Shown: piece by piece, positions 3,093-63,053 of the stretch
Numbering within the stretch: the stretch's first letter is position 1
How the letters are laid out: each line of letters opens with the position of its first letter
Notes under the pieces: generated by a model
What the model saw: the letters and a program-made list of their open reading frames with translations, nothing else
What the model was told of the DNA's origin: nothing
Databases searched by the model: none
Virus record (IMG/VR): IMGVR_UViG_2799112330_000001
Location: 1 to 64,000 of that record
Strand: one strand, 5' to 3'
Length of the DNA stretch: 64,000 nucleotides
Source: a virus
Made by a program: the position numbers and the translations under genes

Positions 3093-3506
3093 TTATTTAT
3101 TAATTAAAACAGATGTCACAACTGTTATTATAATACCTACTATACATCCTCCAGCAACACTACCATATATAATTTTCTTTTTTCTTTCACGTTCATATTG
3201 TTTTTGTAAATCTTCATTTATATTATTTATTTTAACTATACGTTCTTTTAAATCGTTTATTACAGTGTCTTGTTGTAATATATATTTATTGTTTAAAGTT
3301 ATAATAGAATCTTGAGCACTATTAACTTTTAACAAATATTTTCTTTCAATTAATTTATCATTAGCTTTTCTAATAATGTCAATATTTACACATGTGCAAC
3401 TATCTTCAATTATTTGTTCCCCTGTAGTGGTATCATTCGCTAACAAGTTGATAGAACAACTTAATAGCAGCAGAATCATTAATAATATTAGCTTGCTCTT
3501 TTTCAT
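3093..3506 (-). CDS. lysis-cassette protein with lipoprotein signal and C-terminal TMD (spanin-like)
   Basis: The start is taken at the internal Met (MKKSKLILLMILLLLSC...; cat at 3504-3506). Features are a lipobox-like LLSC, a central coiled-coil-like region, and a C-terminal hydrophobic segment IIYGSVAGGCIVGIIITVVTSVLI. The track ORF extends to 3536. Confidence 0.55.
   Translation of the reverse strand: MKKSKLILLMILLLLSCSINLLANDTTTGEQIIEDSCTCVNIDIIRKANDKLIERKYLLKVNSAQDSIITLNNKYILQQDTVINDLKERIVKINNINEDLQKQYERERKKKIIYGSVAGGCIVGIIITVVTSVLINK
3417..3430. repeat. dispersed motif copy (TTCCCCTGTAGTGG)
   Basis: Forward orientation on the plus strand, inside the spanin-like gene (read as TTGE on the minus strand). 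Confidence 0.6.
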
Positions 3507-3753
3507 ATTTATATTCTTGTTTATATTGTTCAACATTTTCTTTTTGTTCTTCTATTTCATATTTTATTTTTTCAATCTCTATTACATTAGTAACAGTATC
3601 TATAACAATAGTAGGCGATTGTGTCAATTTTTGTATCCGACCAATCAACAGTCCAAGTATCATAGTTAAAGTGACTATAATTAATATTCCAATACATATT
3701 ATTAAATGTATTTTTTTATTATTTTGTTCTTGATTGTTTTCCATATTTATCAA
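3433..3753 (-). CDS. lysis-cassette membrane protein (N-terminal TMD plus coiled coil; i-spanin- or holin-like)
   Basis: 106 aa. A single N-terminal TMD (IHLIICIGILIIVTLTMILGLLIG) is followed by a charged, heptad-like segment. Its 3' end overlaps the next gene out of frame (3433-3506). Confidence 0.5.
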   Translation of the reverse strand: MINMENNQEQNNKKIHLIICIGILIIVTLTMILGLLIGRIQKLTQSPTIVIDTVTNVIEIEKIKYEIEEQKENVEQYKQEYKYEKEQANIINDSAAIKLFYQLVSE

Positions 3754-4150
3754 TTAATTCATTAGACATTTTACCAGTTACTTTCATATTTTTAGCTTTT
3801 TGCATTAATTTAATAGTTGCAGTAATCCCACAATTTATTGCATTATCAAATAATTGTTCAGCAACACGTTGAGAATTAACTAAATCTAAATGTAAAGGAT
3901 CCCAATAATTATGTTTATAAATAACTTTAACTTCATTTTTAACACCTATATTATTTTTTAAACAATTATTTATATATTTTTTATCAGTCGATTGTTTTTT
4001 AATGTCATCAATAATAGTCCACAATTTAAGATTAGGATAATTCTTACGGGTAACACCCATATAAGTTTCACCGCCTTTATCATTAGGGTTATTTACATAT
4101 CCTCCTTCTGCTTTAATTGTTTTAGCAAAAGCTTTTTCAAATATTGCCAT
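3719..4150 (-). CDS. endolysin, glycoside hydrolase family 108 type (N-acetylmuramidase)
   Basis: The N-terminus FAKTIKAEGGYVNNPNDKGGETYMGVT matches the GH108 signature (EGGY...D.GG.T..G). Confidence 0.8.
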   Translation of the reverse strand: MAIFEKAFAKTIKAEGGYVNNPNDKGGETYMGVTRKNYPNLKLWTIIDDIKKQSTDKKYINNCLKNNIGVKNEVKVIYKHNYWDPLHLDLVNSQRVAEQLFDNAINCGITATIKLMQKAKNMKVTGKMSNELIDKYGKQSRTK

Positions 4151-4155
4151 AATAT

Positions 4156-4548: not shown

Positions 4549-4551
4549 AAT

Positions 4552-6820: not shown

Positions 6821-6864
6821 TAGCCTATATTTAATCCCCTGTAAAGGGAATGTCATATAGGCTA
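6821..6864 (-). terminator. nested hairpin (outer 10-bp stem enclosing a copy of the dispersed CCCC..GGG motif)
   Basis: TAGCCTATAT (6821-6830) pairs with ATATAGGCTA (6855-6864). Inside it lies tcccctgtaaagggaa (6835-6850). It sits between the stop of 6876..7508 and the start of 6162..6800. Confidence 0.5.
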
Positions 6865-7994: not shown

Positions 7995-8055
7995 AGTTGC
8001 AAATACATTATTTGTTCTACTTTAGTCTATTTTTTGTACATTTGTACAACCAGCA

Positions 8056-8087
8056 CAAAGATACAAAAAAAATTCCATATATGCAAA
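8056..8087 (-). promoter_or_regulatory. Bacteroides-type promoter (leftward)
   Basis: On the minus strand, TTTG (complement of 8084-8087), a 20-nt gap, then TAtcTTTG (complement of 8056-8063). This matches the -33 TTTG / -7 TAnnTTTG consensus. The ATG of the HTH gene is at 7994. Confidence 0.6.
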
Positions 8088-8103
8088 TTTTTTTGCAAAA
8101 TTA

Positions 8104-8135
8104 TTTGCAAAAATCGATTTTTTTTACTATCTTTG
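8104..8135 (+). promoter_or_regulatory. Bacteroides-type promoter (rightward)
   Basis: TTTG at 8104-8107, a 20-nt gap, then TAtcTTTG at 8128-8135. It fires into a region of about 1 kb that has no long ORF. Confidence 0.6.
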
Positions 8136-8140
8136 TAGGC

Positions 8141-8546
8141 ATATAAAAAGTTACATATATTATATAATGTACGCGCGTGAGTATGTCATATTATATAAAA
8201 TTTTATATGTTCTTATAAATTTTGAATATAATAGCATTAATGATATTAAAGAAAGCCGAGCCAAAGATTAAACAGAAACTCGTTTATCTGCGGACGGTAT
8301 ATATGCTTCGGCATATATCGAAGAAGTCCATGTTATGTTTCATAGCAATGTCAGTGACTATCTGGTGGTAGGGGTGTGGGTAGGGTTACGGTATCGTATC
8401 CCGCAAATAATATTATTAATGCTATAAAATATAATAATCGTTGTGATAACGATACTTTTTGATGTCATTTTGAGTGAATAGTTTTCGGTGTAGATTTATG
8501 TATGTTTAGATAGGAATTGTTGTGAAACAGTTCCTATCATTTTTTT
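8141..8546 (+). ncRNA. candidate structured non-coding RNA (about 400 nt)
   Basis: Bounded by the 8104-8135 promoter and the intrinsic terminator at 8509-8546. It contains a hairpin with a C(UUCG)G tetraloop (8299-8318), a G-tract (8364-8385), the hairpin GGGTTACG/CGTATCCC (8383-8402), and the hairpin ATCGTT/AACGAT (about 8437-8453). No ORF reaches the 60-aa track cutoff. Confidence 0.45.
8509..8546 (+). terminator. intrinsic terminator
   Basis: GATAGGAATTG (8509-8519) pairs with CAGTTCCTATC (8528-8538), with one U-G pair, and is followed by T6 (8541-8546). Confidence 0.65.
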
Positions 8547-8701
8547 ATGTTACTCATAATATTAATAAAAGCTAAAGGATAGTAGAACGTATATACTACA
8601 TATACGGGCATTAAATAAAATTAAAGTAATACCCCCGTTAGTGTTATTAATAAAAATATTTTTGTAAATAAATAAATAGGTGAGAAAGTTTTATGATACA
8701 A

Positions 8702-8718
8702 TCACTCTACAGGGGATT
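8702..8718. repeat. dispersed motif copy (TCACTCTACAGGGGATT)
   Basis: Reverse orientation, in non-coding sequence. Confidence 0.6.
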
Positions 8719-8879
8719 AAATATGAGATATAACTAAAATTGTTGATATTATTATAATTATTGTATTTAAATAAGTTATAAAGAATGTTTAATGGATTAT
8801 TATAATATATAAAATAATATATTAAATATATGAAGAGGTTTAATAATGTTATTAAGACGATTTAGGAAAAGATTATAGT

Positions 8880-8963
8880 GAAAATTATATGGAAAATTAT
8901 ATTGAAAATTATGATAAAGATTGTGGTGAAGATTTTAATGAAGATTTAGATGTAGATAGTAGG
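8880..8963. repeat. seven degenerate tandem 12-nt units
   Basis: The units are GAAAATTATATG / GAAAATTATATT / GAAAATTATGAT / AAAGATTGTGGT / GAAGATTTTAAT / GAAGATTTAGAT / GTAGATAGTAGG. They overlap a possible 31-aa acidic ORF (8889..8984). Confidence 0.6.
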
Positions 8964-9014
8964 ATAAAAAATTTTGTCGATTAGCGAGAAGAGGAGGGTA
9001 TTACCACAAAGGGT

Positions 9015-9045
9015 GGGGGTGTGATAAGTGAATGTCAATACCCCC
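9015..9045 (+). other. G/C-rich hairpin
   Basis: GGGGGTGT (9015-9022) pairs with ATACCCCC (9038-9045), with one G-U pair. It lies immediately upstream of conserved box 1. Confidence 0.5.
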
Positions 9046-9055
9046 GTCATATCGA

Positions 9056-9086
9056 ACCTCGTGAGAAAACAGGTCAGATTTCGAAT
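9056..9086 (+). promoter_or_regulatory. conserved 31-nt box, copy 1 (upstream of paralog A)
   Basis: ACCTCGTGAGAAAACAGGTCAGATTTCGAAT matches copy 2 at 10284-10314 at 27 of 31 positions. Confidence 0.5.
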
Positions 9087-9200
9087 GAATAAATGTTTTT
9101 CAAATATTATTCATTTATTACTGAAGTAAGTCATCTGACTACGCTTGCTTTAGCACATTATCCAATAAGTTAGTCACTCAATACAAATTCTGTTACAACT

Positions 9201-12388: not shown

Positions 12389-12409
12389 TGTTCCCCTGTA
12401 GAGGGAACA
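12389..12409. repeat. dispersed motif copy, full form (TGTTCCC-CTGTAGA-GGGAACA)
   Basis: 7-bp arms. It begins 4 nt after the stop of 11930..12385. Confidence 0.75.
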
Positions 12410-15272: not shown

Positions 15273-15304
15273 CTAATATTAATAATCTTAAATTTAGTAA
15301 AATT

Positions 15305-16522: not shown

Positions 16523-16523
16523 C

Positions 16524-18758: not shown

Positions 18759-20211
18759 TATTGTCCCTTTACGGGGGAACAATAATAATTCAATAACATT
18801 CACAAAAGGTCAAGAAATAGCAGTTAAAGAAATACTTAACTTCCTTACTGAACCTTTTGATAAAGCTAAATTTATAGCTGGATTAATAGGTGCAGGTGGA
18901 GTAGGTAAAACATTTGTTATAAAATATATATTAGCAAATTGTAATTATTCTAAAAGTGTAATAACTTGTTGTAGTACAACTCATAAAGCTTGTAGAGTAT
19001 TCTATGAAGCTTTAAATGGACTTTATCAAGTATATACAATTCAAAGTACATTTGGTTTTAGAATGGATTTAAAACTTGAAGATTTTAATCCAAATAATCC
19101 ACAATTTGCTCCAAAAGCTACTCCTAAAATAGATGATACTAAAATTTTAATTGTTGATGAAGCAAGTATGATACCTGCAAGTTTAGTTGGATATATTAGA
19201 AAAGTTTGTATTGAAAAAGAAATTAAAATTTTATTTGTTGGTGATAACGATCAATTACCTCCAGCTAAACAATTAAAAAGTACAGCATTTGATATTTGTT
19301 TTAAAAAGTTTGTTTTAAATGAAATTGTAAGACAAGGTGTAAAAAATCCTATTTTAGGACTATTAGATATGTTAAGATATGATATTGAAAATAATACTAA
19401 TAGATTTATAAGATATTTAACAACTAATATAGGAACAATGAATTATAATGAAAATAATGAAGGTTATTGTATATTAAATAGACAAGAATTTACTCAAGCT
19501 GTAGTAAATAAATTTAGTAATCCAGATTATTCTAAAAATATTGATTTATATAGAATGATAACTTATACAAATGATGCTGTACAATCATGGAATGATTTTA
19601 TTAGAAATATTATAGTAATTGATTCAGAAAAAAATATATTAACAAAACATGATTTATTAATGGCATATGAAACTATTGTAGATGATTATCAAAGTCCTAT
19701 AATAATTAATAGTGAAGAATATATTGTAAATGAAATAGTAAATTATATAGATAATACTTATAAATTTAAAGGATTTAATGTACGTCTTCAAGCAATACAT
19801 GGTGGAAAAATAACTACACCAATGTTTATTATAGATCATAGAGATAGATATACAATGTTAAAATATCATGAAATTGTAAGTTCTCTTATAAAAGATGCTA
19901 AATCTTCTAGTATAGGTGTTCGTTCTGCAAAATGGAAAAAGTATTTTGATTTTAAACGTAAATATCTTTTACTTAAAAATGTTAAAAATGCTTTAGGAGA
20001 ATTACTTTATGATAGAGATTTAGATTATGGTTTTGCTATAACCTCTCATAAATCTCAAGGAAGTACTTATGGTTGTGTATTTGTTGATTGTATGGATATG
20101 ATTTATGATAAACGTGGATTACCTTATACATTAACAAGTGATTTACTTAAACGACTTTATGTTGCTTGTAGTAGAGCAAAAACAGAATTAATACTTTGTT
20201 ATGGAAGATAA
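18742..20211 (+). CDS. SF1 DNA helicase (Dda/RecD-like)
   Basis: Motifs are Walker A GAGGVGKTF, Walker B LIVDEASM, VGDNDQLPP, ITSHKSQGSTY and YVACSRAK. Confidence 0.85.
   Translation: MEMQNSIVPLRGNNNNSITFTKGQEIAVKEILNFLTEPFDKAKFIAGLIGAGGVGKTFVIKYILANCNYSKSVITCCSTTHKACRVFYEALNGLYQVYTIQSTFGFRMDLKLEDFNPNNPQFAPKATPKIDDTKILIVDEASMIPASLVGYIRKVCIEKEIKILFVGDNDQLPPAKQLKSTAFDICFKKFVLNEIVRQGVKNPILGLLDMLRYDIENNTNRFIRYLTTNIGTMNYNENNEGYCILNRQEFTQAVVNKFSNPDYSKNIDLYRMITYTNDAVQSWNDFIRNIIVIDSEKNILTKHDLLMAYETIVDDYQSPIIINSEEYIVNEIVNYIDNTYKFKGFNVRLQAIHGGKITTPMFIIDHRDRYTMLKYHEIVSSLIKDAKSSSIGVRSAKWKKYFDFKRKYLLLKNVKNALGELLYDRDLDYGFAITSHKSQGSTYGCVFVDCMDMIYDKRGLPYTLTSDLLKRLYVACSRAKTELILCYGR
18761..18782. repeat. dispersed motif copy (TTGTCCCTTTACGGGGGAACAA)
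   Basis: Located at the junction of 18243..18758 and the helicase gene, where it is read as VPLRGN. Confidence 0.6.
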
Positions 20212-23154: not shown

Positions 23155-24526
23155 TGAAAAATATGCAAAAGAAATAATGTCTGCTTTTCAAACTGCTAAA
23201 GGTAAAGGATATTGTTTTTGTATAAATCCTATATTACCATATAAATTAGTTGCACAAACTGCAATTGGTATTAGTAGTAAAGATGAAAGTAGAAAAATAC
23301 TTATTGTAACACCTTATTATGATGTTACAAATAAGATTAAAGGAGAATTAATAAAGATTGATAATAAAGAATATACTAATATATCTTATTTAACTAAATT
23401 ATATGTAAATCCTAAATACAACTATAATTATGATTGTACAATTGTTGTTGGAGTAAATGGTGAAGATAGTATTGATTTAGAATTATTGAGAAAACTTGAT
23501 AGTTGTAGTAAATTTACTTTATTTATATTTACTATAAATTCTTTGCCTAATGATATAAATTTATTTCTTACTAAACATAGTAATTTTCTAAAAACAACAG
23601 TTACTCCAAATGAAGCTCGTATGGCTTATCTTTATTCCCCTGTAGAGGAATGGAGATGTGGAGTAGAATTATCAGAAACTGATAGAGAAGAATATGATAA
23701 AGCAAATCAATATATTGCTGACTGTATAAGTATTTTTGGAGATTTAAAAACTATTGAAAAATGTGCTCGCGGTGATAAATTATTAAATATAAGTGCAAGC
23801 GAATTTAGATATAATTTTGCTATTGAAAATGGTTGGAATGAACATTTAAATATGAATTCTGATTATGAAAAAAGTATAGATGAAATTTATAATCCAAATA
23901 CATTAAATGAAAAAGCAAATACTTTTTATACTATTACACATAAAAGAAAAGAAATAGCGATAAATAATGATAATAAATTAATTGAAATAGGTAAAATAGT
24001 AAGAGAAAATTATGATAAAAAAATATGTATAGTTTCTAAATCTGGAGAAATGGCATTAGCTATTGCTAATTATTTAAATGGAGAAGAATTTGCTGAATTA
24101 AATATAAAATGTGGTCAATATCATGATTGTATACCAGAAACTTATGGTATCGATGATGAAGGTAATATATTAATTCGAAAAAGTGGTAAAGATAAAGGTA
24201 AACCTGTTATTCTTAAATCACAAGCCTCTTCGACGCAATATGAAAGACTATATAATTTTGACATTATTAATATAATGAGTATAAAATTTGCTTCTAATGT
24301 TAAATTAAAAATATCTTTTGACTTAATTATTTTTACAGATTGTTTAACAGCAAATATAATTGATTTTAAAAGTCGTTTTATAAATAGTTATTGTAATAGT
24401 TTACCTAATAAAGTATATAGATTGTATAGTACAAATACTATTGAAGAAAAATCTTTAAATAGTGAAAATATAATGTCAAATGTACAAATAATGTCGCATA
24501 TTGAAGAAAAATTCATTTTTGATTAA
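23141..24526 (+). CDS. hypothetical replication-module protein (possibly a degenerate helicase-like fold)
   Basis: 461 aa. There is no clear Walker A. The C-terminal half (ICIVSKSGEMALAIANYL ... VILKSQASSTQYERL) loosely resembles a helicase C-terminal domain. The functional call is weak. Confidence 0.3.
   Translation: MMTPNEKYAKEIMSAFQTAKGKGYCFCINPILPYKLVAQTAIGISSKDESRKILIVTPYYDVTNKIKGELIKIDNKEYTNISYLTKLYVNPKYNYNYDCTIVVGVNGEDSIDLELLRKLDSCSKFTLFIFTINSLPNDINLFLTKHSNFLKTTVTPNEARMAYLYSPVEEWRCGVELSETDREEYDKANQYIADCISIFGDLKTIEKCARGDKLLNISASEFRYNFAIENGWNEHLNMNSDYEKSIDEIYNPNTLNEKANTFYTITHKRKEIAINNDNKLIEIGKIVRENYDKKICIVSKSGEMALAIANYLNGEEFAELNIKCGQYHDCIPETYGIDDEGNILIRKSGKDKGKPVILKSQASSTQYERLYNFDIINIMSIKFASNVKLKISFDLIIFTDCLTANIIDFKSRFINSYCNSLPNKVYRLYSTNTIEEKSLNSENIMSNVQIMSHIEEKFIFD
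23635..23650. repeat. dispersed motif copy (TTCCCCTGTAGAGGAA)
   Basis: Inside 23141..24526, where it is read as SPVEE. Confidence 0.65.
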
Positions 24527-29929: not shown

Positions 29930-31159
29930 ATGATAGAATCAAAAAATGAACATAAACTTCTATATAGAAGAAACAATAAAGGTCAACCTTGCTATTGGTG
30001 GGGAGAACCAGATAAAATTGATAAAGTAATAAGATTGCATCATGGTATAGTAGGAAAAACTGATATTATTGATATGATTGTTACTAATAGAGATGTTGAA
30101 AAAGAATATCAATCTATGATTAATGAAAAACGTAAAGCTGGTTATAAATATATTTGGGAACTTAAAGACAATAATGATACCCCTGTAGAGGGAACATTGC
30201 TACAATATCTGAATACTTATCTTCCTTACGATAGAACTACTTCTGATGGAATGATGCTTTCTATGTTAGCTAAAACTTATGATAATGAAAATAATAAAGT
30301 ATTTAATAAATGTCCTATATATTACGGACAATGGAAGATTAATGGTTTAAGATGTTCTATTAGTGCTCATTATAATCAAGGAGATTTATTTAAACCTATA
30401 AGTTTAAGATTTCAAAGTCGTGAAGGAACTGTATGGAATAGTTTATCTGATTTAGAGAGCTATCTATTAAGTATTCTTCCTGCAAAATTATTAAATGATA
30501 TGCTTGAAGAAGAATATATTCTTGATGGTGAAATTTATTTACCTGGTCATACAGTTAACGAAATAAATCATTTTGTAAAAGATCCTAAATGTAAAGAAAA
30601 TAAACTTCTTCAATATTGGTGTTATGATATTGCTATTCAAGATTGTATACAAAGTACTAGAGAAAATATTAGAATAAAATATTTAGCAAATTTTGTTCCG
30701 TTTATTAAAACTAAACAAATGCACTATGCTAATCAACATAGATTAATTGCTCTTCCAAGTATTGACATTTGTAATCATGAACAAGCAAGAGTTGCTAGAG
30801 ATTTAGCTATTGAAAATGGTTTTGAAGGATTAATTCTTCGTAATCCTGATAAAGAATATCAATATGGCGCAAGAAATATGGCTATGATTAAATATAAACG
30901 TAGTACTGATGGAAAATTTATTATAGTTGATATTAAACCAGAAGGAATTAAACGACCAGATATACCTTTATTTGTTCTTAAAAATGATATAAATGATTCA
31001 TTATTTGAAGTACATGTAGGAGGAAAATTTGATTATCAAAAATTTATATTAAAAAATAAAAATTTATATATAGGAAAATTTATGTTTGTTGAATATGGAG
31101 AGAGAAGTGGTGTAGAACAAGTTCCTTTCCATGTTAAAGAAACATATATAATCGATTAA
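29930..31159 (+). CDS. ATP-dependent DNA ligase
   Basis: Nucleotidyltransferase motifs are present in order: I WKINGLR (KxDG variant with N), III ILDGEIY, IIIa YWCYDI, IV EGLILRNP, V MIKYK. The N-terminal roughly 90 aa look WGR-like (HHGIVGKTD...EKRKAGYKY). Confidence 0.8.
   Translation: MIESKNEHKLLYRRNNKGQPCYWWGEPDKIDKVIRLHHGIVGKTDIIDMIVTNRDVEKEYQSMINEKRKAGYKYIWELKDNNDTPVEGTLLQYLNTYLPYDRTTSDGMMLSMLAKTYDNENNKVFNKCPIYYGQWKINGLRCSISAHYNQGDLFKPISLRFQSREGTVWNSLSDLESYLLSILPAKLLNDMLEEEYILDGEIYLPGHTVNEINHFVKDPKCKENKLLQYWCYDIAIQDCIQSTRENIRIKYLANFVPFIKTKQMHYANQHRLIALPSIDICNHEQARVARDLAIENGFEGLILRNPDKEYQYGARNMAMIKYKRSTDGKFIIVDIKPEGIKRPDIPLFVLKNDINDSLFEVHVGGKFDYQKFILKNKNLYIGKFMFVEYGERSGVEQVPFHVKETYIID
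30179..30195. repeat. dispersed motif copy (ACCCCTGTAGAGGGAAC)
   Basis: Inside the ligase gene, where it is read as TPVEGT. Confidence 0.7.
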
Positions 31160-33819: not shown

Positions 33820-33837
33820 TTTCCCTCTACAGGGAAA
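33820..33837. repeat. dispersed motif copy (TTTCCCTCTACAGGGAAA)
   Basis: Intergenic, ending 16 nt upstream of the ATG at 33853. Confidence 0.7.
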
Positions 33838-36689: not shown

Positions 36690-36723
36690 TATGATTAATC
36701 ACACTACGAGGATTCAATTATAG

Positions 36724-36738
36724 TTCCCCTGTAGAATG
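36724..36738. repeat. dispersed motif copy (TTCCCCTGTAGAATG)
   Basis: Intergenic, ending 30 nt upstream of the ATG at 36768. The 3' arm is degenerate. Confidence 0.55.
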
Positions 36739-40200: not shown

Positions 40201-43200
40201 TAACTAAATCACCAGTTTCACTATCATGTTCAACGAACATTTGTAACCATATTGCAAATTTTGCAGGTTCAGATGTTTGAAAATGAGATTTAACAGTTAA
40301 ATAATCTGCTTTAAAAGATTCATTATCTGTAACTTTTTCAGTAAGCGCTTTAAGTCTATTTCTTATATCTTTTGGTAATTTTTTACCTTTTATTTCTCTA
40401 AGTTCATTTATTTTATCTCTTAAATTTCTTAATTCTTCTATATTCAAATGACTTAATAATAATATCATATCTATACCTTTAGAAGTAACAGCATTTGCAT
40501 TAACAAATATTTTATTTATTTCTTTAATTTTTTCTAATTTATCAGCATTTTGAGAAAAATGTTCTCCACCATACACATCTAAATAAAATTTATCTTTATA
40601 AATAGGTTTTTTAAATCTAACTTGATTTATTAAAGCATCATCACTTAATATAGAAGCATTAGAGCGCAATTTAGAATTTTCCATAGCATTTTTAATACCA
40701 CGTTGTTGTTCTAATGATAATTTTCTTCCATCAATTCTACCAAATTCATCAACAAAACCATTACGTTTACACCAAATAGTAATATTTTTAAAAGTAGAAT
40801 GTTTACTTCCTCTTAAAATTTCATAATTTTTAGAAATTTCTTTTAATGTTTTTTCATTTATACTATATATAGAATTTTTATTTACCCATACATATGCTTC
40901 TTTATAAGAAGGATTTTCTAATTTAGCATTTAAAGAAAGTCCTGGATGAAGTTTATCAAATTCAGAAATAATATCTAAATAATGACGAATAGTTTTAACC
41001 CATGAATCAGTAGGCTCATATTCTTTATATTTAGAATTTATTTCTTTTAACGATTTTATATAATGATTAAGTATTTGTGCTTGTCTATCGATATAAATAT
41101 TATCAGACGACATCGAAATTATTTCTCCATCTTCAGTTGTATCAAATTCACCTTTAGTTTCTTGTGTTAATTCAGATAATCTAGAATGTATTTCTTTAAT
41201 TCTTTTTATATCACTTTCTGTCATAGCAGAAGCATCATATGTAAACCCAGATAATTCATCTTTAAGTTTATTATATTCAATAAAATAATTAATAGCATTT
41301 TCTCCATTTATAGTTTCATCACCATATAAAATTCTTCTAGTAGCTTCATTTATAGCATCATAATATTCTTTTACTAAAAGTTGTTCAACATTTTTAGCAA
41401 ACCATTCATCTCTTTCTAATTTTGCTTTTAACGCTTGTTCTGAATATTTACCATATTTAGCCATTGCTTCTATATAATTATCTATAACAGTTTGTTTATC
41501 TTCAAAATATTTATCATTATATTTTTGTATATATTTTCCATGTTCATCTATAATTTTATTCATATCTATATTTCCAGATTTCATTATATTATCATATTTT
41601 TCTTGAAATTCTCTAACTGCATCTGGAGCTTCAATATCTCTAACTCTATCTATAATACCATAAACAAGTTTTAAAACTGTTTGTATTTGTTTATTATTTG
41701 TAAATCCTGCATCAGCAATTTGTAAATCAAACCAATTTATATCACCAAACTGAGTACGAAGTTTTATTAAATCATGTCTAATTAATGGATTATTTGAATA
41801 TTTTTTAGCAATATAAATATTAAATATATTACTAATCGCTCCATTTTCACCATTAAGAAGATTATTATTTCTAATTAAATTTATAGACTTTCTTATAGTT
41901 TCTATACTTTTATTAATAATTTCATCCTCTACTTCAACGTCTAAACTAAATACTTCACCTATATCTCTACCAAAATTTTTAGCATTGAGAATTAACGCAA
42001 TCAAATCATCATAATATTCAGGATATTTTAATAATTCTTCATATAAATTTGGATTACCAATATTAAAATCTTTTTTATTTTCTCCTTCACCTATAACATA
42101 ATGTTTCATTCTATCTAAAAGAAGATTTGCTTCTTGTTCATAATATGAAGCTGCAGAAACAAATATATTTCTTTTATTTTTTATAACAGAATCTTTATCA
42201 TCTACAATTAATTCACCAGTAGAAACTTTTCTAGCAAATCTTTGTATTATACTATTATCTGAACGTTTTGAGCGATTATACATTCTTTTTGCTAATTCTC
42301 CAGCAAATTTATCTATAGGTTCAACTTTTGAGTCTAAAGGCCTACTTACATCATCTTCATCTATAAGTAAATTAGTTACAGCTGCTTTAATTTTTCTTTC
42401 ATTATCTTCTTCTTTAACAGCTTCATTTAATTCCTCATCAGTTTTATATCCAATTTCTACACTCAATAACATATGTTTATCAGCAAATTTATTTTTAAAT
42501 AAATAATCTATTAAATTATCTTCAGCTTTATTAGAGGTATATTTTTTCTTACCACTTATAGCATTATCTCTTAAAATTCTTTTAAGACTTTCTAAGTTTT
42601 TACGTTTATAAGGTTTTATTATTATTGTATGAAGTTCTCCATCAACAAGTATATCTTGAATTATAGAAGTATTTTCTTTAAATAAATTCATTAAATAAGG
42701 ATTTAAAGTTGCAGCAACAGTATATTTCTTTATATCATCTCCTTCTACAGGGGTTTTAATAAAATCAGTTATTTGTTCAATAAACATTTCTATTCCTTTT
42801 TTAGAACTTTCATCTCCTTTTTCTCCATTTAATATTTGTTGAAATTCATCATTTTCCATTTTTTCAGCAGCATAAACAGGAATTTTATAATTTTCTACTT
42901 TATCTTCAGCTGTCGCTCTATTTTCATATTTATATTTATCTAAATCTACAGTAGGTAATACTTTTATAATATCTTTAAATTGAGTTTCATAATACTCGTG
43001 TTTATATAAAGGATTATTCTCTTCTTTTACAGAATAATCATTATATTCATTTTCTTCTAATATTCCAATAGGATATAAATATATTCCATATAAAGCATTT
43101 TCTATTTCTATTCTTTCTACTTTATATAATTCAATTTTATCATTCTTTGATTTTATTTTTACAAATCCTTTAGTTTGATCAGAACCTAAAATTTTCTTTA

Positions 43201-46200
43201 TCAAAGATTGATTTGGACTATTTTTATTGCCTACTTTTATTAAAACACTTCTATCAGAATTTGTACTATTATAAAATATACTTTTTTCACTTGAATTTGT
43301 ATCTTTTGAAATAGTAGTATTTAAATTTAATTCTTTTATAAATGTATGATGTTGTCTAATAAATCTTTCTATAAATGTATTTCCAGATTTTTCTCTAATA
43401 TCTATATCATGCAATTGAGAGCTTAATTCTTCTACAAAACTATAATTAGGATTAATTGTAAATCCATAATCATTATTAGATGTATAAAGAAAATCATTTG
43501 TTATAATTCTAGAAATTCCACCAAATTTAAAATTATCTCCTTCAACAATAAATGCATATTTAACTAAATCTGCAGCAGCTAATTTAATTAAAGGATTTTT
43601 ACTAAATGCAGCTTTTCTAAAAGCAGAATATAAAATTTCAACATCATTACCAAATTTAACTTTCAGGCTATTTATGTTTACCCCGTAGAGGGAATAACTG
43701 CCACGAGAAATATAATTTGTTTCAATATAATTAAATATTTCAGCATTATTTCTAAAATGTAATTTAATCCAATCTACTTTTTGTGCAGGAGTTAATTTAC
43801 TAAAAGCTTTAATTTCTTCTTTTGTAGGTTTTTCTATATTATTTACTTTAATATCCCTATATCCTTGTACACCAAATCCAAAAATTCTCATTTTTTCTCT
43901 ATTCCAATAATTTGCATGAGGTGTAACAGTATTAGCATCGTTTTCTGTATTTTTTTCAGAAATATCTAAATTTTCAATATCCGGAATAAATCTATTATAT
44001 TTATCTACAATTAAAGGTGTAACAAGAGTTTTATTTTCATTAAATACACTGCTTACAATATATTTTTTATATTCTTTGTATTCATCATTTGTTAATCTTC
44101 TACCTAATTTATGTTCTATTAATTCACATAAACTAAATGTTTTATTATCATTAAATAGTTCTACTAATCCATAATAACCTAAACTAAATTCAGGACTTTC
44201 TAAGTCAAATAATTGACTATTTATTACAACAGATGGAATTGTAGTATACTTTAAAAAACTTGCTAAATATTCATAAGAACTATCTTTTTCTCTTAATCCA
44301 CTACGTTCAAATAAACCTGGATACAAAGATTGTAAAAATGGAATATCTTTATCATTTGTAATTTCAAATATAGCATCATTATTTGCATTAAATCCATAAT
44401 TATATATATTTATTAAAGCTTCTTTAGTATCATGAATAGTTTGTTTTGCACCAAATTTATCAGGATTACAACATTGAACTAAATTTTCTATATTTTTTGT
44501 TATACCATTTAATTGAGAATAAATAGAAAGAACTTGAAATTGATGTAATAAAGTATCATTTCCATTTAATGCATTATATAAATCTTTAACGTTTATTATA
44601 TTTTCATCAGAAAGTTTAAAAAATTCTTTTCCCTTTTTTATAACTGTTTTTAAATCAGAATAATTACTAACTTCATTATATCCAGCTTCATTTAATATTT
44701 GAACCATAGTTTCAACTATAGCATTATTATTATCATTTATATAAATAGATTTATTATTATTAAAATTTTTAACTAATTTAGTAATAGCAGGTTGAGCCAA
44801 AAATCCTATAGCTGTGCTATAATCTATTCCTAAGTCTATTAATGTTTTAAATATTCCAAATGTGTCTTCAGTTTCATTTATAATAGCACCTTCTTTTACA
44901 GCATCGAGAATATGAGCAGTTGTTTCAGAAGAATATACTGTCATTAAACGACCTAAAATATTGCGATTTGTAGTTTTACCATTATGTGAATGCCATCCTA
45001 GTTCATCATGAGCAACAATATATTCATCATCATTACTTTCTCTATATTCGTTATATAAGCTTTTTAAATTATCTTTTTTATCTTTTAAAGTTTCTCCTTC
45101 AAATATATCTTCATAAGATTTTTTATCACTATTATATATTTGCTGATTTAAATCATAAGCTACTAAAATAGGAGTTTTTAATTTTCCATGTATTTTATTA
45201 GAAACAGATAAAAATGTATCACGTTGTACAGATAGTGCTTTTAATCTAGCTCCCATAATAGCATCTTCAAAAAATTGAATTTGTGTTAAAGTATTTGCAA
45301 CAGCTTGATTATGTTTTGATTTTATTGCTTCAAGTTTAGAGATAGTTTTATTAACAGCAGTTATATCATCAAAATTAGAACGTGACATATTTTCTTCAAA
45401 TGAAGAATCATTTTTAAGTATCTCTAAAAAATTATCTATTATATTATTATTTCTTGCTTCTCTAATTTGTTGTTCTAATATAGGTAATTTTATAAATTCG
45501 TCATATTTTATAAGATTATATTCATTTGCTAAATCGTTTATAGCAGATAATAATGCAGCGTGATAAGATTCTTTTTCAGATTCTATTCTATTCCAATTAT
45601 CAGATATATTATTTAATTCATTTGTAATAGCTTTTCTATCATTTATTATATCTATTAGTTCTTGTATAGAACTTTTAATTTGAGGATTAATTTTAGGACT
45701 TTTTAAAAATATTTTAAATTGTTCAATATAATGTTTATCTCTTATTTCTAAATCACCATAAGCATCATTTATTTTTTTCATATTTCTGCTAATCATTTCT
45801 TTTATATTAGCAGGTAATGATTGAATTAATTCATTTTGTTGTTTATAATTATTTTTAAAATAATCAGTATTTTGTAATTTAGCTTGTATATTATTAATAT
45901 CTTTTAAAATATTAGATATATTATTTCTTTTTTCTTCATTTAAAAGTTTATTATCTTTGTTTAATGTATCTTGTAATGTTTTTATTCTACCATTTTTAAT
46001 TAGTTGTTTTATATAAGCTATATATCTATTTTCTCTATCTAATTGAGTATCTTTATTATTTTCATTTATTTTTTCAAAATTTTTAGTTTTTTCATTATAT
46101 CTAAAATTATGACATATACCATAAATAGAGTCAACATCAAAGTCAGAACCTGTTTGAGTAACCCATTCATTAGGAACAAATATTGTACTACCATAAATAT

Positions 46201-49200
46201 CATCGACAAAACCAACAACTTTCATTATTGCAACAGATTGTTTTCCTTCAGTAGGAATACGATAGCCAATATGTTCTAATAATTTAGCATCATTTAATTT
46301 TTTAAGAATTTCTTCATCAAACTTTTGTTGTTCTTTTTCTATTCTAGTATAATATACATCATTACTTTCATTTTCTTTTTTAGGCGTACGTTTATATTTA
46401 GGAATATTCATACTCCAACGAGGAATAAGAACTTCTATATATGGAACATAATTTCCTTTCTCGTCACTATGATATTTTAATGTACGTATTTTTCCAGTAG
46501 TATCTCTAACACCTGTACCTACACCTGATACTTGTGCCATATGCCAACCTGGAAGAGTTTGTTTTCTAACTGAAGAATTAAACAAAGCTTGAGTAACACT
46601 TTCTTGTTTTTCACTATTTATATTCATAAAATTAGGCATTTTAGGATAGCCAGCAGTTTCATCTATTTCAAAATATTCTTTAAAATTACTATCCATTCCA
46701 AGTCTTTCTGCTTCTTGTAATGCTCTTATATAGAATTCTCTAAAATCAAGTAATTCTTTTCCATTGCTACGATTAACAATTCTTCCAGTATTTTTATCAA
46801 TCATCCAACCCATATTAAAAAGCATTTGATCATAACTTGCTTTAATATTAGTTGAAAAATTAGTTATAAATGCGTTTACAAATTTATCTACATCTTCTGT
46901 AGCATTATCAATTATTTTCTTTGTAATTTGTAAACCTGCTTTATTAACTTCATCTTTGGTATGTTCAGCTACATCTTGCTGTTTCCAAAGATTTCTATAA
47001 TAATAATCTTCTACTACATTATAATTATAATTTCTATTATCTCCATCTAAAGGGGAACTAATTTGAGAAATAAATTCATCATAATTAACAACTTTTTGAT
47101 TATTATCCCAAAATGTTAAAATATCTCTATTGGCTGCTTTAGAAGTTTCTATTGTATTAACTTGATCTATACCAGCTTCAACCATAGCGTTATATAATTT
47201 CTCTAAATCAGTTCCAACTAATAATTCAGGAATAAGTACAAATTCAGCATTTTTTATTTGACGAGGATACATTGTTCCTGTCTTTTTATCTGTTTGTATA
47301 TCAAAATAAAAATTCTTTTGTACTTGTATTCTTTTATTTATAGAATTAATATCAACGTCTGCAAGAGTTATTTCTTTAGAACGAAGTTTATTAATAGTTT
47401 CAATTAAATCTTTATATTCATTATAAGTGCCATCAGCATACCTACGTCTTATCCATTCTTCAAAAGTTATATACGATTGAGCATCATTAACTTTAGTTTT
47501 AGCATTAGTAAAAGCGTCACTTAAATAATTTACTAATCTATTAGCAACAGATTTAGAAACAATACCATCTGCTACTTTTTTATCCATAGTTTTTTGCAAT
47601 TGTTTTTTAATAATATCTCCTTGCTCACTTGTTTTTACTGTATTTTCAATAGTTATTGCTCTAAAACCGTTTCTTGCATATATAGGAACTTGTTTAATTA
47701 TCCATTTTTCTTTTCCATTTTCATCTTTAGTTCTAACTTTTATATTAGATGTAGTTATTAATTCTTCTTTTCCGTTATATTTTAAATTATGTATATCTGT
47801 TCCAGGTTGCTCATAAATATCACCACCATAATAAACTTGTCCACCAGCTTGAACTTCTTTTGCTCGTTTTAAAAAAGTACGTATATCATCTTGACGATTA
47901 CCTTCATCGTCTTCAGACCATTTATTATAAAATTTATTATCACCTGTAATTATAGGTTCTGTGGCAAGTCTTATATAAGTTGTCGCTAAAACAAAATTAA
48001 CAACATCTAAGTTTGTTTTATTTAATTTTTTAAGATTTATATCCAATACATTAGAATATTCATTTAAAGCATCTGTAGTATCTTTTTGAAATTCCATTAG
48101 CCAATCTGATACAACATCATCTAAAATATTATCTATTTCTTCAGTATATTTAAAATCTACAATAACTTTTTGTCCTTTTTTATTTATATTAAGTTTTATA
48201 ATATCAGAATCTTCATTTATATATAAATTGTCTTTATCATCTGTATAAAATAATGAATTAGTATTTACATCCCCGTAGAGTGATAATTTATTATTTAATA
48301 TGCTATCTACATCAAAATTACCAATTTTAAATAATTTATCAAATCTAAAGAAATTACCAACTAATTTTCCATTTTCTATTATTTTATTGCCTTTTCTATG
48401 AACTAAATTAATAAGTCCTTTTTTAGATTTAGCTATTTTCCAATTGTTTCCACCAACTTTATCATTATCTTCAGTTTCTATAACATTTCCTAGTTGATGT
48501 ATATAATTATATAATTCAGATTTTAATAATTGTTTGTAACCTAGAAATATTTCAGAATTTTTATTTATTTTTCTTTCTATAGAATTCTCTTCAATTTCAT
48601 TTTCTATAATATTATTTTTAAATATGCTTACAAATGTATCTGTTAATGTATCTTCTAAAAATTTATTTTTTAATACATATAAATTATTAATTTCACTAAA
48701 TTTAAATATTTTTTTACTATTATCTACATATTCTATTTTCATTTCTAAATAAAATGTAGTATCGCCTTCTTTATAAATTATTGGAACAGTAGAAACCCCA
48801 TTACTATTTTTAATCGAGAAAGCATAACTTCTATATGTATCATTATTTTTACCAATTAATGTTCTAAAAAATTTAGATTTGTCAAAATTATGTTGTTCTC
48901 CAAGTCTGTTTAATTTATTATTTAATTCATATTCAAAATCAGTTTTAGCCAATTCATTTATTTTTGTAACTTTATTATTATAAAGTGATATAAATTTTGC
49001 AACAGCTACAGAATCTTTTCCATCATAACTAAAAATATCATCTGTTTTAATAGGAGGAACAGACATTATATAATTTTTTTGAGCATCTGATGGAGTATCT
49101 AAGAAAAATGCTAATCCTTTTTCTTCTGTGCCTGGTTGATTAATACCATTAAAAAATGCTAAAAGTTGTGTAAAGAAATAATCACTTTTTGTAGCAGATT

Positions 49201-51579: not shown

Positions 51580-58316
<6,737 letters not shown>

Positions 58317-60014: not shown

Positions 60015-60017
60015 TAA

Positions 60018-61106
60018 TTAAAAAGTTATACCATCTTCTCCTGCCATATCGTCACTAGAAGCACCATTTACGCTTTCTGTTGTATCACTAGTTCTATTTG
60101 TAGTTCCAGCAGATTCTCCACCTAAATCACCATATCCAGGAGTTTCATTTATATTATTTTTTCCTCCACCTTTAAATAAATAAGGATTAAATAAATTAAC
60201 ATCTCTAGAAGTAACAAGTTTTCTATATTTACTACCCTCAATACTATTCACAAATGTATATTGAATAAACTCTAAAGGACTTCTTTCAACCCCACTAGCA
60301 GTATATAATCCATAATCTGTATTATCTCCATGTTCTTTAGCCCATTTAGCATATTTAATTTTTTGATTAATATGAGCTTGATAAGCTTGATTATGTTCAT
60401 ATAAACCTATAACACTTTTAAATAATTTATCACCTGTTACTTCTTCTTTCATATTTCCATATTTATCTATTATAGCAGCACTAACAATATCTTCACTATT
60501 TGCTCCAACTTCTTTTCCATTTATATCATAAAATTTAAGAGTCTCACCAGAAGTTACATCAGGTCTAGTAAATTTAATTACTTCTTCAAACATTTTAGTA
60601 TCATCTATATAACTTACTGGTCTATCTATCGGCTCCCATTTACTACCTCCTATAATTTTACTTCCATCTTGTGAATATTTATCTTCATAATAATAAGGAT
60701 TTTTATCAATATACATGTCTTTCATATATTCAGGAATATCAGTACGTTTTAATATTTCATCTTTAAATGCTTTATAATCTTGTTGCGCTCTTAATCTTCC
60801 TAATACTCTAGGATCGCTCATTATTTTACCACTTTTAGCAATAATATCATCTAAAGCGTAATACATATTTCCATATTTAATACTATCGTCAATTGTTTGT
60901 TGTAATTCATCTAATAATTCTTGTTTAGTTCCATCCTCTTTTTCATTAAAATCAAGTTGTCCAATAGCAGTTTGTAATTGACTAGCTGCTTCTACTGCTT
61001 TTAAATGACCAGCTTCTAATTTATCAGAAGTTGATATTAATTGGTCAATAGCAGCTTTTCTTGATTCAGCTGTACCATCTTGATATATATAATTTCCAAA
61101 AGTCAT
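60018..61106 (-). CDS. hypothetical protein
   Basis: 362-aa ORF. Confidence 0.8.
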   Translation of the reverse strand: MTFGNYIYQDGTAESRKAAIDQLISTSDKLEAGHLKAVEAASQLQTAIGQLDFNEKEDGTKQELLDELQQTIDDSIKYGNMYYALDDIIAKSGKIMSDPRVLGRLRAQQDYKAFKDEILKRTDIPEYMKDMYIDKNPYYYEDKYSQDGSKIIGGSKWEPIDRPVSYIDDTKMFEEVIKFTRPDVTSGETLKFYDINGKEVGANSEDIVSAAIIDKYGNMKEEVTGDKLFKSVIGLYEHNQAYQAHINQKIKYAKWAKEHGDNTDYGLYTASGVERSPLEFIQYTFVNSIEGSKYRKLVTSRDVNLFNPYLFKGGGKNNINETPGYGDLGGESAGTTNRTSDTTESVNGASSDDMAGEDGITF

Positions 61107-61121
61107 AATTGTATAAATTTA

Positions 61122-63053
61122 TTAAACATGTGACATAGCTTCAACAGAATTTGGATTTCCAGCTAAAGCAGCTTTATATCTTAACCAATTATATATAGTA
61201 TTTCCTCCAGCATTAGCAAATTGATTTACAATACCTGCATAAGTTTCTAACATTTTAGTTTCATTTTCACTACGTTTATCAAGTAATTGCATATTTAACA
61301 TTGCTTTCTGATGTTCAACATTTTGTGCATTTTGAATATTTTTAGCAATAGTTTGACCTTGTTGCAATAAATTTTGATTAATTAAATTTGTTTCAATATT
61401 TTCTTTTTGTCCATATAATTTCATATTTTGTAAAGCAGTATTATATCGTGCGCCATGTTTTCTTGCTAAAGCTACTTGAGAACTAGCTGTATTTGCATCT
61501 ATATCTCTTAATGTTAAACCTAAGTTTCTTCTATTTTCAGATAATTGAGGATTTATATTAAATCTTGTTTTTAAACTAATTAAAGGTATATCATAAGATT
61601 TAATACTATCTACAATAGATTTCATTTTATTTAAATAATGCGCATTAGATAGAACATTTGCAGAAGCTCCAGCCAATCCAGTCAATGCAGATGCTCCATG
61701 TAAAATAACATTACCTAAAAAATATCCTGCACCTTGAGGACCATATTTATCAGTTAATTTTTCTCTTATAGATTTCTTTTTAGCAGGAATATTATTTTCT
61801 GTTAGTTTATCTTCAGGTTTTGGATTTTCAATAACTCTATAAGGAGATTTAACTTTATCTACAGTTTTATCACCTATTTTATAACTTTTTGGTTCAAGTA
61901 ATCCAGTTTCAGGATTAATATTATATTTAAAATCTGTAGCAATAATTGGAGTAACTCCTATAGGCATATCTTCTTTTCTTTCATACCATTTTCCGTCTGT
62001 ACCCCAAAGTGCTCTTTTTCTATTATTTGATTGATATTGTTTCCCTGTAGAGGGAACATATCCTAAAAGACTTGCATTTTTTTCTTTGTTTGTCATACCA
62101 CCATATTGTTTTTTTGTTCTTTGACTATTTCTAATTTTTTCGTCTAAATCTTTATTTTTATTTTTAAATGTATTATATAACATATTGTTTAAATATAATT
62201 TATCTTTTTGATTTTCTCCAGTTGCTATAAAACTGCTATAATTTTTTGTTTCATTTATAGGTATATTTTTTAATAAAGATTCTGCATTATAAATATTAAC
62301 TCCGTTTGATTTTAATTTATTTAATATTTGTAAAGCATTAGAATCACCCATATTATAAGCCATAAGAGCTTTAATTGTAGTAACAGTATCATTTTCATTA
62401 TTAGGATTATTTATCCAAGGTCTATTCATATATCCATCCATTAATTTATTTCTAACCATTATTGCTGTATCAGTATTTAAAACACTTTCATAAGAAATAG
62501 AATCGCCAGTTTGTCTATTATATTCATCTACGCCAATAGGTCTAATTTGAAATAATCCTCTTGCATTTTTACTATTTGTTGAAGTAGTGTCATATTTACT
62601 TTCAGCATAAGCTTGTCTACTAGCAACATCTTCTAAATAATTGTTTTCTCCCTCTAAAGGGGATTTATTACTATTTCCGCCAAATAATTTTTTAACAAAT
62701 TCTTTTATTCCAAATTTAGCTTTTTTCTTACTGCCATCATCATTAATTCCATTAATCTGCTTATATTGTTCTTGTGCTGCAAATATTAAATTTGGATTAG
62801 CACCTTTTAAAACTAAATTTGCAGGACTTTCACCACCTAAAAATTTTTGTGCACTAAACACTCTTACTTCATTATTGTTTTTATCTTTTTTAACTATTTC
62901 TCCATTATCAACAGATAATTTAGCAATACCATTTTTTAGTTTTACATCTGTATCTATATCATCAGTTTTATTCGGATTTTTACCTATCATTAAATAATAA
63001 TCATTTCCAATAGGTAATGCTAAACCTTTTTTTGTAGTAATATTGTTAATCAT
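61122..63053 (-). CDS. protein with lytic transglycosylase (SLT) domain
   Basis: 643 aa. QAYAESKYDTTSTNSKNARGLFQIRP carries the catalytic E-S and GLxQ motifs, with a downstream ALMAYNMG. C-terminal hydrophobic Gly-rich segments are present. Confidence 0.7.
   Translation of the reverse strand: MINNITTKKGLALPIGNDYYLMIGKNPNKTDDIDTDVKLKNGIAKLSVDNGEIVKKDKNNNEVRVFSAQKFLGGESPANLVLKGANPNLIFAAQEQYKQINGINDDGSKKKAKFGIKEFVKKLFGGNSNKSPLEGENNYLEDVASRQAYAESKYDTTSTNSKNARGLFQIRPIGVDEYNRQTGDSISYESVLNTDTAIMVRNKLMDGYMNRPWINNPNNENDTVTTIKALMAYNMGDSNALQILNKLKSNGVNIYNAESLLKNIPINETKNYSSFIATGENQKDKLYLNNMLYNTFKNKNKDLDEKIRNSQRTKKQYGGMTNKEKNASLLGYVPSTGKQYQSNNRKRALWGTDGKWYERKEDMPIGVTPIIATDFKYNINPETGLLEPKSYKIGDKTVDKVKSPYRVIENPKPEDKLTENNIPAKKKSIREKLTDKYGPQGAGYFLGNVILHGASALTGLAGASANVLSNAHYLNKMKSIVDSIKSYDIPLISLKTRFNINPQLSENRRNLGLTLRDIDANTASSQVALARKHGARYNTALQNMKLYGQKENIETNLINQNLLQQGQTIAKNIQNAQNVEHQKAMLNMQLLDKRSENETKMLETYAGIVNQFANAGGNTIYNWLRYKAALAGNPNSVEAMSHV
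62038..62058. repeat. dispersed motif copy, full form (TGTTTCCC-TGTAGA-GGGAACA)
   Basis: Inside the SLT-domain gene, where it is read as VPSTGK. It shares CCCTGTAGAGGGAACATATC with the copy at 12389. Confidence 0.75.
62649..62664. repeat. dispersed motif copy, TAA-type loop (TCCCTCTAAAGGGGAT)
   Basis: Inside the SLT-domain gene, where it is read as SPLEG. Confidence 0.5.

Follow-up and report, generated by a model that had tools for sequence, protein, structure and literature searches.

Among the closest described counterparts of the element considered here are the localized-nick motifs of phages and the sites at which primases start DNA synthesis. The nick motifs of T5, phiKMV-like and tf/LUZ24-like phages (Rembedalsseter) are 9-19 nt in length, strand-specific and present in a handful to tens of copies per genome, and the documented sites of this kind lie on one strand only and are irregularly spaced (PMC3517423, PMC11780129). 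The nick word of phage tf is dispersed and asymmetric, and related phages differ in it, TACTGTGAC versus TACTATGAC (PMC3517423). We analyzed a stretch of 64,000 nucleotides of viral DNA (positions 1 to 64,000 of IMG/VR virus record IMGVR_UViG_2799112330_000001; hereafter, the window) in which a G+C-rich word is dispersed over both strands. This word is one lineage's form of a cis-acting DNA site that occurs throughout Intestiviridae. We weighed several functions for it, and the priming of DNA synthesis is the one that we tentatively prefer.

A dispersed word in the window and throughout Intestiviridae

The window has a G+C content of about 25% and is crAss-like in layout, with a terminase followed by a replication block and then by open reading frames (ORFs) of 4723 and 2245 amino acids (aa). 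An earlier note, made by eye from the letters, had listed 19 copies of a G/C-clamped stem-loop word and judged them too many for chance. When the 13-mer CCCCTGTAGAGGG was searched on both strands, 17 matches with 2 or fewer mismatches were found, whereas 100 dinucleotide-preserving shuffles averaged 0.03 and reached 1 at most. With up to 3 mismatches allowed, all 19 listed copies were recovered (the listed coordinates refer to the longer 21-mer form and lie 0-4 nt upstream of the core 13-mer). Sub-words of the motif were top-ranked in an unbiased k-mer test of the window, with 9- to 10-mers exceeding the Markov expectation 470-1000-fold. A position matrix derived from the copies scored the 19 at 21-38 bits and gave one weak extra match at 13.8 bits, which should be read against the 0-1 matches that shuffles yield at 9 bits or more; the same matrix run on the shuffled window gave 0-1 matches. 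Based on the shuffles, the k-mer test and the matrix, a chance origin of the word was rejected.

The near-invariant stretch measures 13-21 nt in the window and 17-20 nt in crAssphage. Thirteen window copies are coding and 6 are intergenic (non-coding fraction 11.3%, P = 0.015), and copies sense and antisense to the local genes are about equal in number, in agreement with the earlier description of both orientations and both kinds of placement. The further remark that intergenic copies follow stop codons or precede starts by 16-35 nt holds for some copies. Two other points did not stand. The "broken gene at 15914" was not supported, the copy there lying between a 71-aa ORF that ends at 15901 and the ORFs that follow, in a region with two tRNA genes, and the argument that coding copies avoid the frames with an embedded TAG or TAA would hold for any coding sequence, so it carries no weight.

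The window terminase has 56-62% aa identity, and the DNA polymerase 65-72% nucleotide identity, to those of cr3_1, ctbg_1 and Carjivirus communis. The window lineage has no close relative among deposited phage genomes; the closest relative found is IMGVR_UViG_3300032030_000044 (89.5 kb; loci L040, L062 and L065), with approximately 80% nucleotide identity over the DNA polymerase region. A single-protein scan for related loci returned only one distant locus. In an unbiased test of each relative's whole genome, the top word was a relative of the window word, enriched 10^3- to 10^4-fold. The k-mer enrichment that the earlier note had proposed for related crAss-like genomes thus placed a variant of the word first in each of three:

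cr3_1: TCCCCCGTA(G/A)AGGAA (that is, TCCCCCGTArAGGAA), 32 copies
ctbg_1: CTGGCCCGTAAAGgga, also written CTGGCCCGTAaAGgga, 20 copies
prototypical crAssphage: AC(C/T)CCCCGT(A/G)GAGGATGGA (that is, ACyCCCCGTrGAGGATGGA), 31 copies

Variants were also found in cr271_1 (Obtuvirinae), cr110_1, cr107_1 (Churivirinae), the cultured Rudgehvirus jaberico and a metagenomic locus, L119. The word was present in every Intestiviridae genome examined, each with its own variant. The common core consists of a C-run, one base, GTA or GTG, and then R-A-G-G (CCCC-N-GTA/G-R-A-GG), which lineage-specific flanks lengthen to 17-22 nt. The left half (C-run and GTA) varies less than the right half, and the A/G of GT(A/G) is the one variable base in the crAssphage word. 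The string CCCCTGTA is common to the window and the distant Rudgehvirus. Use of the "T variant" as a strict lineage marker was rejected, as orthologous sites in L062 show C swapped with T at -1 and G with A at +4.

Two sub-variants, TTCCCCCGTArAGGA and TTCCCCCATAAAGGAG (8-11 copies), occur together in cr107_1 (L128), indicating that the G of GTA is replaceable in some lineages. Separately, a group of smaller, unrelated phages with 44% G+C, an HK97-type capsid and a TerL of phrog_2 (L066, L081, L088 and L098, which are one lineage, and L035, L043 and L105) carries 3-7 copies of yCCCTGTAGAnGr per 5-13 kb compared to roughly 0.2 expected (a rough estimate). These copies are mostly co-oriented with genes and could represent the same phenomenon or a coincidence inflated by the way loci were retrieved.

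The word is apparently unreported, at least in the searchable open-access literature. No prior description of it or of a crAss-like motif was found there, subscription-only literature lying outside the search, and the exact words, whichever way they were oriented, matched nothing but unrelated primers. The motif is not mentioned in the phi14:2 virion RNA polymerase (RNAP) paper, a survey of approximately 600 crAss-like genomes, the crAssphage culturing preprint or the Rudgehvirus paper.

Rudgehvirus and two Steigviridae phages were isolated on one strain, Bacteroides cellulosilyticus WH2 (PMC10028833). Rudgehvirus has 16-17 copies of the word in 50 kb. In contrast, the 50-kb halves of the two Steigviridae phages from that strain, Kehishuvirus tikkala and Kolpuevirus frurule, contained 0 core copies and no comparable over-represented word, and a 50-kb sample of crAss001, also of Steigviridae, likewise contained 0 core copies. 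A host-dictated signal is disfavored because these same-host phages lack the word; the control excludes a host Chi, and a restriction-related or other host-specified word was rejected on the same basis. Ten small window ORFs near sites yielded neither RepL nor any other Pfam domain. Very probably, the word is a DNA site that functions in a strand-specific way and is recognized by a factor of the phage lineage; the reader is probably encoded by the phage itself.

Coding context, conserved positions and spacing

Coding copies use the rarest codons of the genome, those with 1-6% of their amino acid. In the window, CCC accounts for 1.1% of Pro, GGG for 1.3% of Gly, CTC for 1.2% of Leu, TCC for 1.4% of Ser, TAC for 3.4% of Tyr, AGG for 2.7% of Arg and GAG for 6.4% of Glu. 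All stop-free reading frames are used. Protein alignments are colinear across the coding sites, with the peptide conserved at orthologous positions, and an origin of the coding copies by insertion or mobility was rejected on these grounds. Systematic mapping across four genomes identified a core set of sites that share both the codon and the sense or antisense orientation:

SNF2-like ATPase: 4 of 4 genomes
small gene adjoining the terminase (TerL): 4 of 4 genomes
primase, ligase and virion RNAP: three genomes each
DNA polymerase: cr3_1 and crAssphage

At other sites the aligned relatives carry no copy, so turnover occurs as well. Orthologous sites carry the flank of each genome's own lineage. 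At the SNF2 site, for example, flanks of TCC, TCC, TGG or CTC place S, S, W or L, respectively, ahead of Pro. The protein has been adjusted to fit the DNA word, and tens of sites have changed in concert. The earlier note had claimed selection at the level of the nucleic acid; both the rare codons and the neighboring residues that shift with the DNA flank bear this out. Positional conservation, which it had suggested as a test, was found at several sites with identical codon and orientation, in genomes whose TerL identity is 56-62%.

The copies in the window are as follows:

1395..1407, minus strand: degenerate half-copy ACCCTGTAGGAAT inside the terminase gene, below the matrix threshold (the half-copy that the earlier note had placed at 1397)
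3419..3431, plus strand: CCCCTGTAGTGGT, antisense in a 147-aa ORF upstream of the terminase, peptide TTTGE; orthologous sites at cr3_1 81698, crAssphage 91291 and ctbg_1 7209
6836..6848, plus strand: CCCCTGTAAAGGG, intergenic, nested within a 10-bp inverted repeat (6821-6830 / 6855-6864)
8703..8715, minus strand: CCCCTGTAGAGTG, in a 1.2-kb non-coding region between divergent gene blocks
12393..12405, plus strand: perfect copy with 7-bp arms TGTTCCC/GGGAACA, 7 nt past a stop codon
15965..15977, plus strand: CCCCTTTAAAGGG, a perfect palindrome and therefore of ambiguous orientation, intergenic between tRNA-Leu and tRNA-Glu
18765..18777, minus strand: CCCCCGTAAAGGG, antisense in the SF1/RecD-like helicase (codons 8-12); in L062, the 80% relative, the word at this position is CCCCTGTAGAGGG
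23637..23649, plus strand: CCCCTGTAGAGGA, sense in the SNF2-like ATPase, SPVEE; codon and orientation identical in cr3_1, ctbg_1, crAssphage and L119
28319..28331, minus strand: TCCCTGTAGAGTG, antisense in the primase, SLYRE; orthologous sites at cr3_1 53857 and crAssphage 16632
30180..30192, plus strand: perfect copy, sense in the DNA ligase, TPVEG; orthologous sites at ctbg_1 76242 and crAssphage 18161
33823..33835, minus strand: TCCCTGTAGAGGG, intergenic, 17 nt before the start of a Gp157/Gam-like gene
36696..36717, minus strand: weak extra copy TTGAATCCTCGTAGTGTGATTA (13.8 bits), back-to-back with the 36726 copy at 24 nt, possibly by chance
36726..36738, plus strand: CCCCTGTAGAATG, intergenic, after a DUF932 gene
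42741..42753, minus strand: CCCCTGTAGAAGG, sense in the 4723-aa virion RNAP ORF, TPVEG
43680..43692, plus strand: ACCCCGTAGAGGG, antisense in the RNAP ORF, SLYGV; relatives alignable but siteless
47043..47055, minus strand: CCCCTTTAGATGG, sense in the RNAP ORF, SPLDG; relatives alignable but siteless
48270..48282, plus strand: TCCCCGTAGAGTG, antisense in the RNAP ORF, SLYGD; orthologous sites at cr3_1 33868 and ctbg_1 58050
52877..52889, minus strand: CCCCTGTAAGTGG (3 mismatches, 21 bits), sense in the 2245-aa ORF, SPVSG
55278..55290, plus strand: CCCCTGTAGATGG, antisense in the 2245-aa ORF, PSTGE
62042..62054, plus strand: TCCCTGTAGAGGG with long arms, antisense in a 643-aa ORF, PSTGK
62650..62662, minus strand: CCCCTTTAGAGGG, sense in the 643-aa ORF, SPLEG

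The spacing of the copies was assessed in eight genomes. With the strands pooled, spacing was more even than random, with a coefficient of variation (CV) of 0.53-0.67. Within each of the 8 genomes, however, the copies resolve into two interleaved series, one per strand, each of which is even (CV 0.15-0.56), with a typical per-strand interval of approximately 5-9 kb. Two of these series are:

window, plus strand: 11 copies, mean gap 5.9 kb, CV 0.24
crAssphage, plus strand: 18 copies, mean gap 5.4 kb, CV 0.31

The 19 window copies comprise 11 on the plus and 8 on the minus strand (11 and 7 in the 18-site set used for statistics), and those of crAssphage comprise 18 and 13. In the first four genomes, where per-strand CV was 0.24-0.56, all 8 strands were more even than random placement (P <5x10^-5 to 0.03), and 6 of the 8 had P < 0.05 when strand labels were shuffled among the real positions. 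In four further genomes, sampled as 50-kb halves, all 8 strands had P < 0.05 under both nulls (CV 0.15-0.48), such that the label-shuffling null was beaten by 14 of 16 strands overall. Orientation alternated in 67 of 97 successive steps in one set and 49 of 61 in the other, or 116 of 158 (73%). Strand preference showed no replichore-like switch along the genome. A process that acts on one strand at a time is favored by the evenness within each strand, which a reader of duplex DNA would not obviously need to maintain. The layout calls for a strand-specific event every few kilobases of each strand, performed by a lineage-specific factor with a long recognition sequence.

Some sites form close convergent intergenic pairs, 29-122 bp apart. 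In crAssphage (BK010471; L124 and L125), these are 22905+/22934-, 28081+/28179- and 95749+/95871-, of which the latter two precede the two repL genes by a few hundred bp. Comparable pairs were observed in cr110_1, cr3_1 and Rudgehvirus.

Several local features of the window were also noted. The inverted repeat around the 6836 copy is perfect (TAGCCTATAT ... ATATAGGCTA) and lies in a 75-nt gap between two minus-strand genes. Region 7995-9200 has no ORF of at least 80 aa and one motif copy (8703), and is likely a regulatory or origin region. The two tRNA genes, tRNA-Leu(TAA) at 15187-15273 and tRNA-Glu(TTC) at 16451-16523, fall within a stretch of small ORFs from 12.6 to 17.5 kb that has no database matches. 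The next most over-represented word family in the window, GGTGGTGA/TCACCACC, has 6 copies at 35 times expectation and could reflect a repeated peptide.

Candidate functions

According to genome annotations, the DnaG-family primase of Intestiviridae is accompanied by SF1 and SNF2 helicases and not by DnaB, whereas Steigviridae have both the primase and DnaB. Since DnaB, the usual recruiter of a DnaG-type primase, has been lost, fixed recognition sites may replace recruitment of the primase. We give a rough probability of 40% to the possibility that the sites are priming or initiation sites for DNA synthesis, the event being suggested by the layout and the template strand presumed. When the template strand is exposed, the phage priming machinery would start at a site and begin discontinuous synthesis. 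Were the C-rich strand the template, 5'-CCCC(N)GTA-3' would be copied into a G-rich primer that starts with a purine, pppA-C-(N)-G-G-G-G. The 3' A/G of GT(A/G) would be an uncopied, "cryptic" base, as in T7, in which gp4 primase sites are of the 5'-GTC-3' type with the C uncopied. A G-rich primer would also be unusually stable in a genome of 25-30% GC. On the observed side, GT[A/G] follows the C-run, placement is strand-specific, and in crAssphage close convergent site pairs precede both repL genes; however, the word is far longer than known primase sites and the primase is not distinctive.

The primase of the window (27496-28686) and its orthologues have lost the zinc-ribbon ligands and read SP(I/F)R.D.HP in both families, where the zinc ribbon of DnaG has CPFH. 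The Intestiviridae primase has an extra segment of approximately 13 aa after the N-terminal domain. The window primase had no sequence match in Pfam, NCBIfam or PDB.

Several observations weigh against priming. DnaG-type primases read approximately 3 nt (sites of 3-5 nt), far less than a word of 17-20 nt, and Okazaki fragments are typically 1-3 kb, such that site spacing of 5-9 kb implies longer ones. The primase is homologous, and its zinc-ribbon ligands equally degenerate, in the Steigviridae that lack the word. Because there is no replichore-like switch, the model needs either forks that travel in both directions or firing of a site upon every exposure. A search for a window protein unusually similar to its Rudgehvirus counterpart, that is, one tracking the motif variant rather than phylogeny, returned none. 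Also, the eight genomes are related and some of their sites orthologous, which makes the spacing statistics not fully independent, and the Steigviridae were sampled as halves and not as whole genomes. Finally, we infer priming from layout. As a tentative proposal, genome replication or processing in Intestiviridae may depend on a fixed lattice of approximately 20-30 long, strand-specific sites that alternate between strands every few kilobases; their reader would be a dedicated phage enzyme, and its specificity would drift along with all the sites.

A less probable but credible alternative is that the sites are programmed single-strand interruptions, with a phage nickase cutting one strand at each site, on both strands overall, in replicating or packaged DNA. 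The word resembles that of phage tf in being dispersed and asymmetric; in both, the consensus differs by lineage and relatives have sites at similar positions. Placement is strand-specific and even, all of these phages encode a DNA ligase, and interleaving leaves most opposite-strand sites kilobases apart, which would preserve the integrity of the duplex. However, the opposite-strand pairs at 29-120 bp would become fragile staggered breaks if both members were nicked, and known nick motifs are one-stranded and irregular whereas the word is on both strands and regular in 8 of 8 genomes. No candidate for the nickase emerged. Small viral contigs showed no clear coincidence of their ends with sites (2 of approximately 18, compared to 0.65 expected), in a comparison with few informative contigs, and nicks are not mentioned in the survey of crAss-like genomes, the crAssphage culturing preprint or the Rudgehvirus paper.

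It is unlikely that the sites bind a phage architectural or regulatory protein on duplex DNA, to organize, condense or silence the genome, with orientation being incidental. Dedicated DNA-binding proteins typically have a long recognition word that is specific to the lineage and co-evolves, all lineages keep a small CC...GG dyad around GTAGA, and sites are enriched between genes. The pooled evenness of spacing also fits. However, evenness within each strand exceeded that of label shuffling on 14 of 16 strands, 73% of steps alternated, and the word is asymmetric in most lineages.

Slightly less likely still is a phage-specific Chi-like signal, which a RecD-like helicase, a PD-(D/E)XK nuclease and RecT would read on single-stranded DNA. 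Such a signal would switch degradation to recombination, mark phage DNA as self and seed recombination-dependent replication. The family does encode a RecD2-like SF1 helicase, a PD-(D/E)XK nuclease, RecT and a Gam-like protein, and the layout is strand-specific and orientation-dependent, with about one site per 3 kb overall in any reading frame. Known Chi words, however, are 5-8 nt compared to the 17-20 nt conserved here, and Steigviridae have the PD-(D/E)XK exonuclease without the word.

Readings at the level of RNA were addressed by folding 30-nt windows around every site with DNA parameters, compared to shuffled sequence, in four genomes. Sites in the window folded slightly better than shuffles (-2.2 versus -1.0 kcal/mol), an excess driven by 4-5 copies, the only ones to reach stems of -4 to -6.5 kcal/mol. 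Sites of cr3_1, ctbg_1 and crAssphage folded no better than shuffles, and the crAssphage form of the word is non-palindromic; what all lineages keep is a dyad of 2-4 bp, CC...GG, around GTAGA. The stem-loop described in the earlier note is therefore real for some window copies, which have 5-7-bp stems, but the hairpin is not conserved in relatives, and we rejected it as a conserved feature. The best hairpin copy (12389-12409) is terminator-like solely on the strand antisense to the local genes and has no T-run on the sense strand; a sense terminator at 12393 was accordingly rejected.

An RNA-level element (a processing or pausing hairpin or a terminator) or a promoter for the virion RNAP, both of which the earlier note had put forward, is very improbable. 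Some intergenic copies do lie just past stops or 16-35 nt before starts, and the crAss-like virion RNAP transcribes denatured DNA from promoters that are undefined (10.1101/2020.03.07.982082). However, approximately half of the copies are antisense to the gene that hosts them and are conserved so at orthologous sites, 13 of 19 window copies are intragenic, the hairpin is not conserved in relatives, and Steigviridae have the virion RNAP without the word. Two strong, terminator-like hairpins in the window, at 8509-8538 and 16572-16603, have 13-14-bp stems, T-runs and a GTGA loop between TT and AA (TTGTGAAA), and are unrelated in sequence to the motif. Terminator-like sites are concentrated at 6-17 kb of the window (11 versus 2.1 expected).

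Least probable of all is a selfish mobile mini-element akin to mitochondrial GC clusters, REP/REPIN or Rickettsia palindromic elements: the word is G+C-rich in a very A+T-rich genome, its consensus is specific to each lineage, its close inverted intergenic pairs resemble REPIN doublets and its GT[A/G]G core presumably resembles the REP 5' tetranucleotide, but orthologues show that the coding copies did not arise by insertion, deeply diverged genomes have many sites at orthologous positions, spacing is regular and not clustered, most copies are intragenic, annotations of the deposited genomes contain neither a transposase nor a RAYT-like gene, and no Pfam match to RAYT (HUH Y1 transposase) was found among the 20 window ORFs scanned.

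The word provides a handle on the mechanism of replication or genome processing in Intestiviridae, and its co-variation offers a route to the responsible enzyme. It is also a sequence signature by which Intestiviridae can be recognized and sub-typed in metagenomes. That tens of orthologous sites have changed in concert, with some of them forcing aa changes in essential proteins, is a clear natural example of co-evolution between a reader and its sites. If the lattice is real, initiation or nicking points would be hard-wired genome-wide on both strands, including in the most abundant human-gut phage; we know of no counterpart to such a lattice, or to its interleaved per-strand regularity, in a virus or a cell. 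Rudgehvirus jaberico is in culture and crAssphage is grown in community culture; with these phages and with public native Nanopore data, the main hypotheses can be tested now.

Comparison with known systems

REP/REPIN-RAYT elements and GC clusters are also G+C-rich dispersed words with a lineage consensus, GT[A/G]G and occasional inverted doublets. However, they are extragenic or inserted, hairpin-forming and mobile, whereas the word is mostly coding, made by substitution, conserved in position and independent of a hairpin. T7-type RNAP promoters are similarly long (17-23 nt) and near-invariant within a genome, and their specificity varies by lineage and co-evolves with the reader. Those promoters are co-oriented with genes and mostly intergenic; in contrast, half of the word sites are antisense and most are intragenic.

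Chi and the DNA uptake sequences (DUS) and uptake signal sequences (USS) of bacteria are likewise over-represented, selected, present in any frame and spaced at one per few kb, and Chi is read on one strand. They are, however, read by the host, 5-12 nt in length and not even within each strand, and the word is not shared with phages of the same host. In localized-nick motifs, the dispersed asymmetric word, the lineage-specific consensus and the similar positions among relatives are all features of the word as well. Their sites are all on one strand, which those of the word are not, and the likeness is one of sequence layout.

For priming, the known systems are primase sites and single-strand initiation (ssi) sites, namely those of T7 gp4, ssiA/ssiB of RSF1010 and mitochondrial OriL. 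Like the word, they are strand-specific, and they act on exposed single strands with a purine start opposite T followed by a G/C-rich copied stretch; the ssi sites lie on opposite strands. To our knowledge, no described system has 20-30 long sites at regular intervals across a genome. Primase sites are 3-5 nt and abundant, and ssi sites number one or two per replicon, whereas the word occurs as 20-30 long, regular sites.

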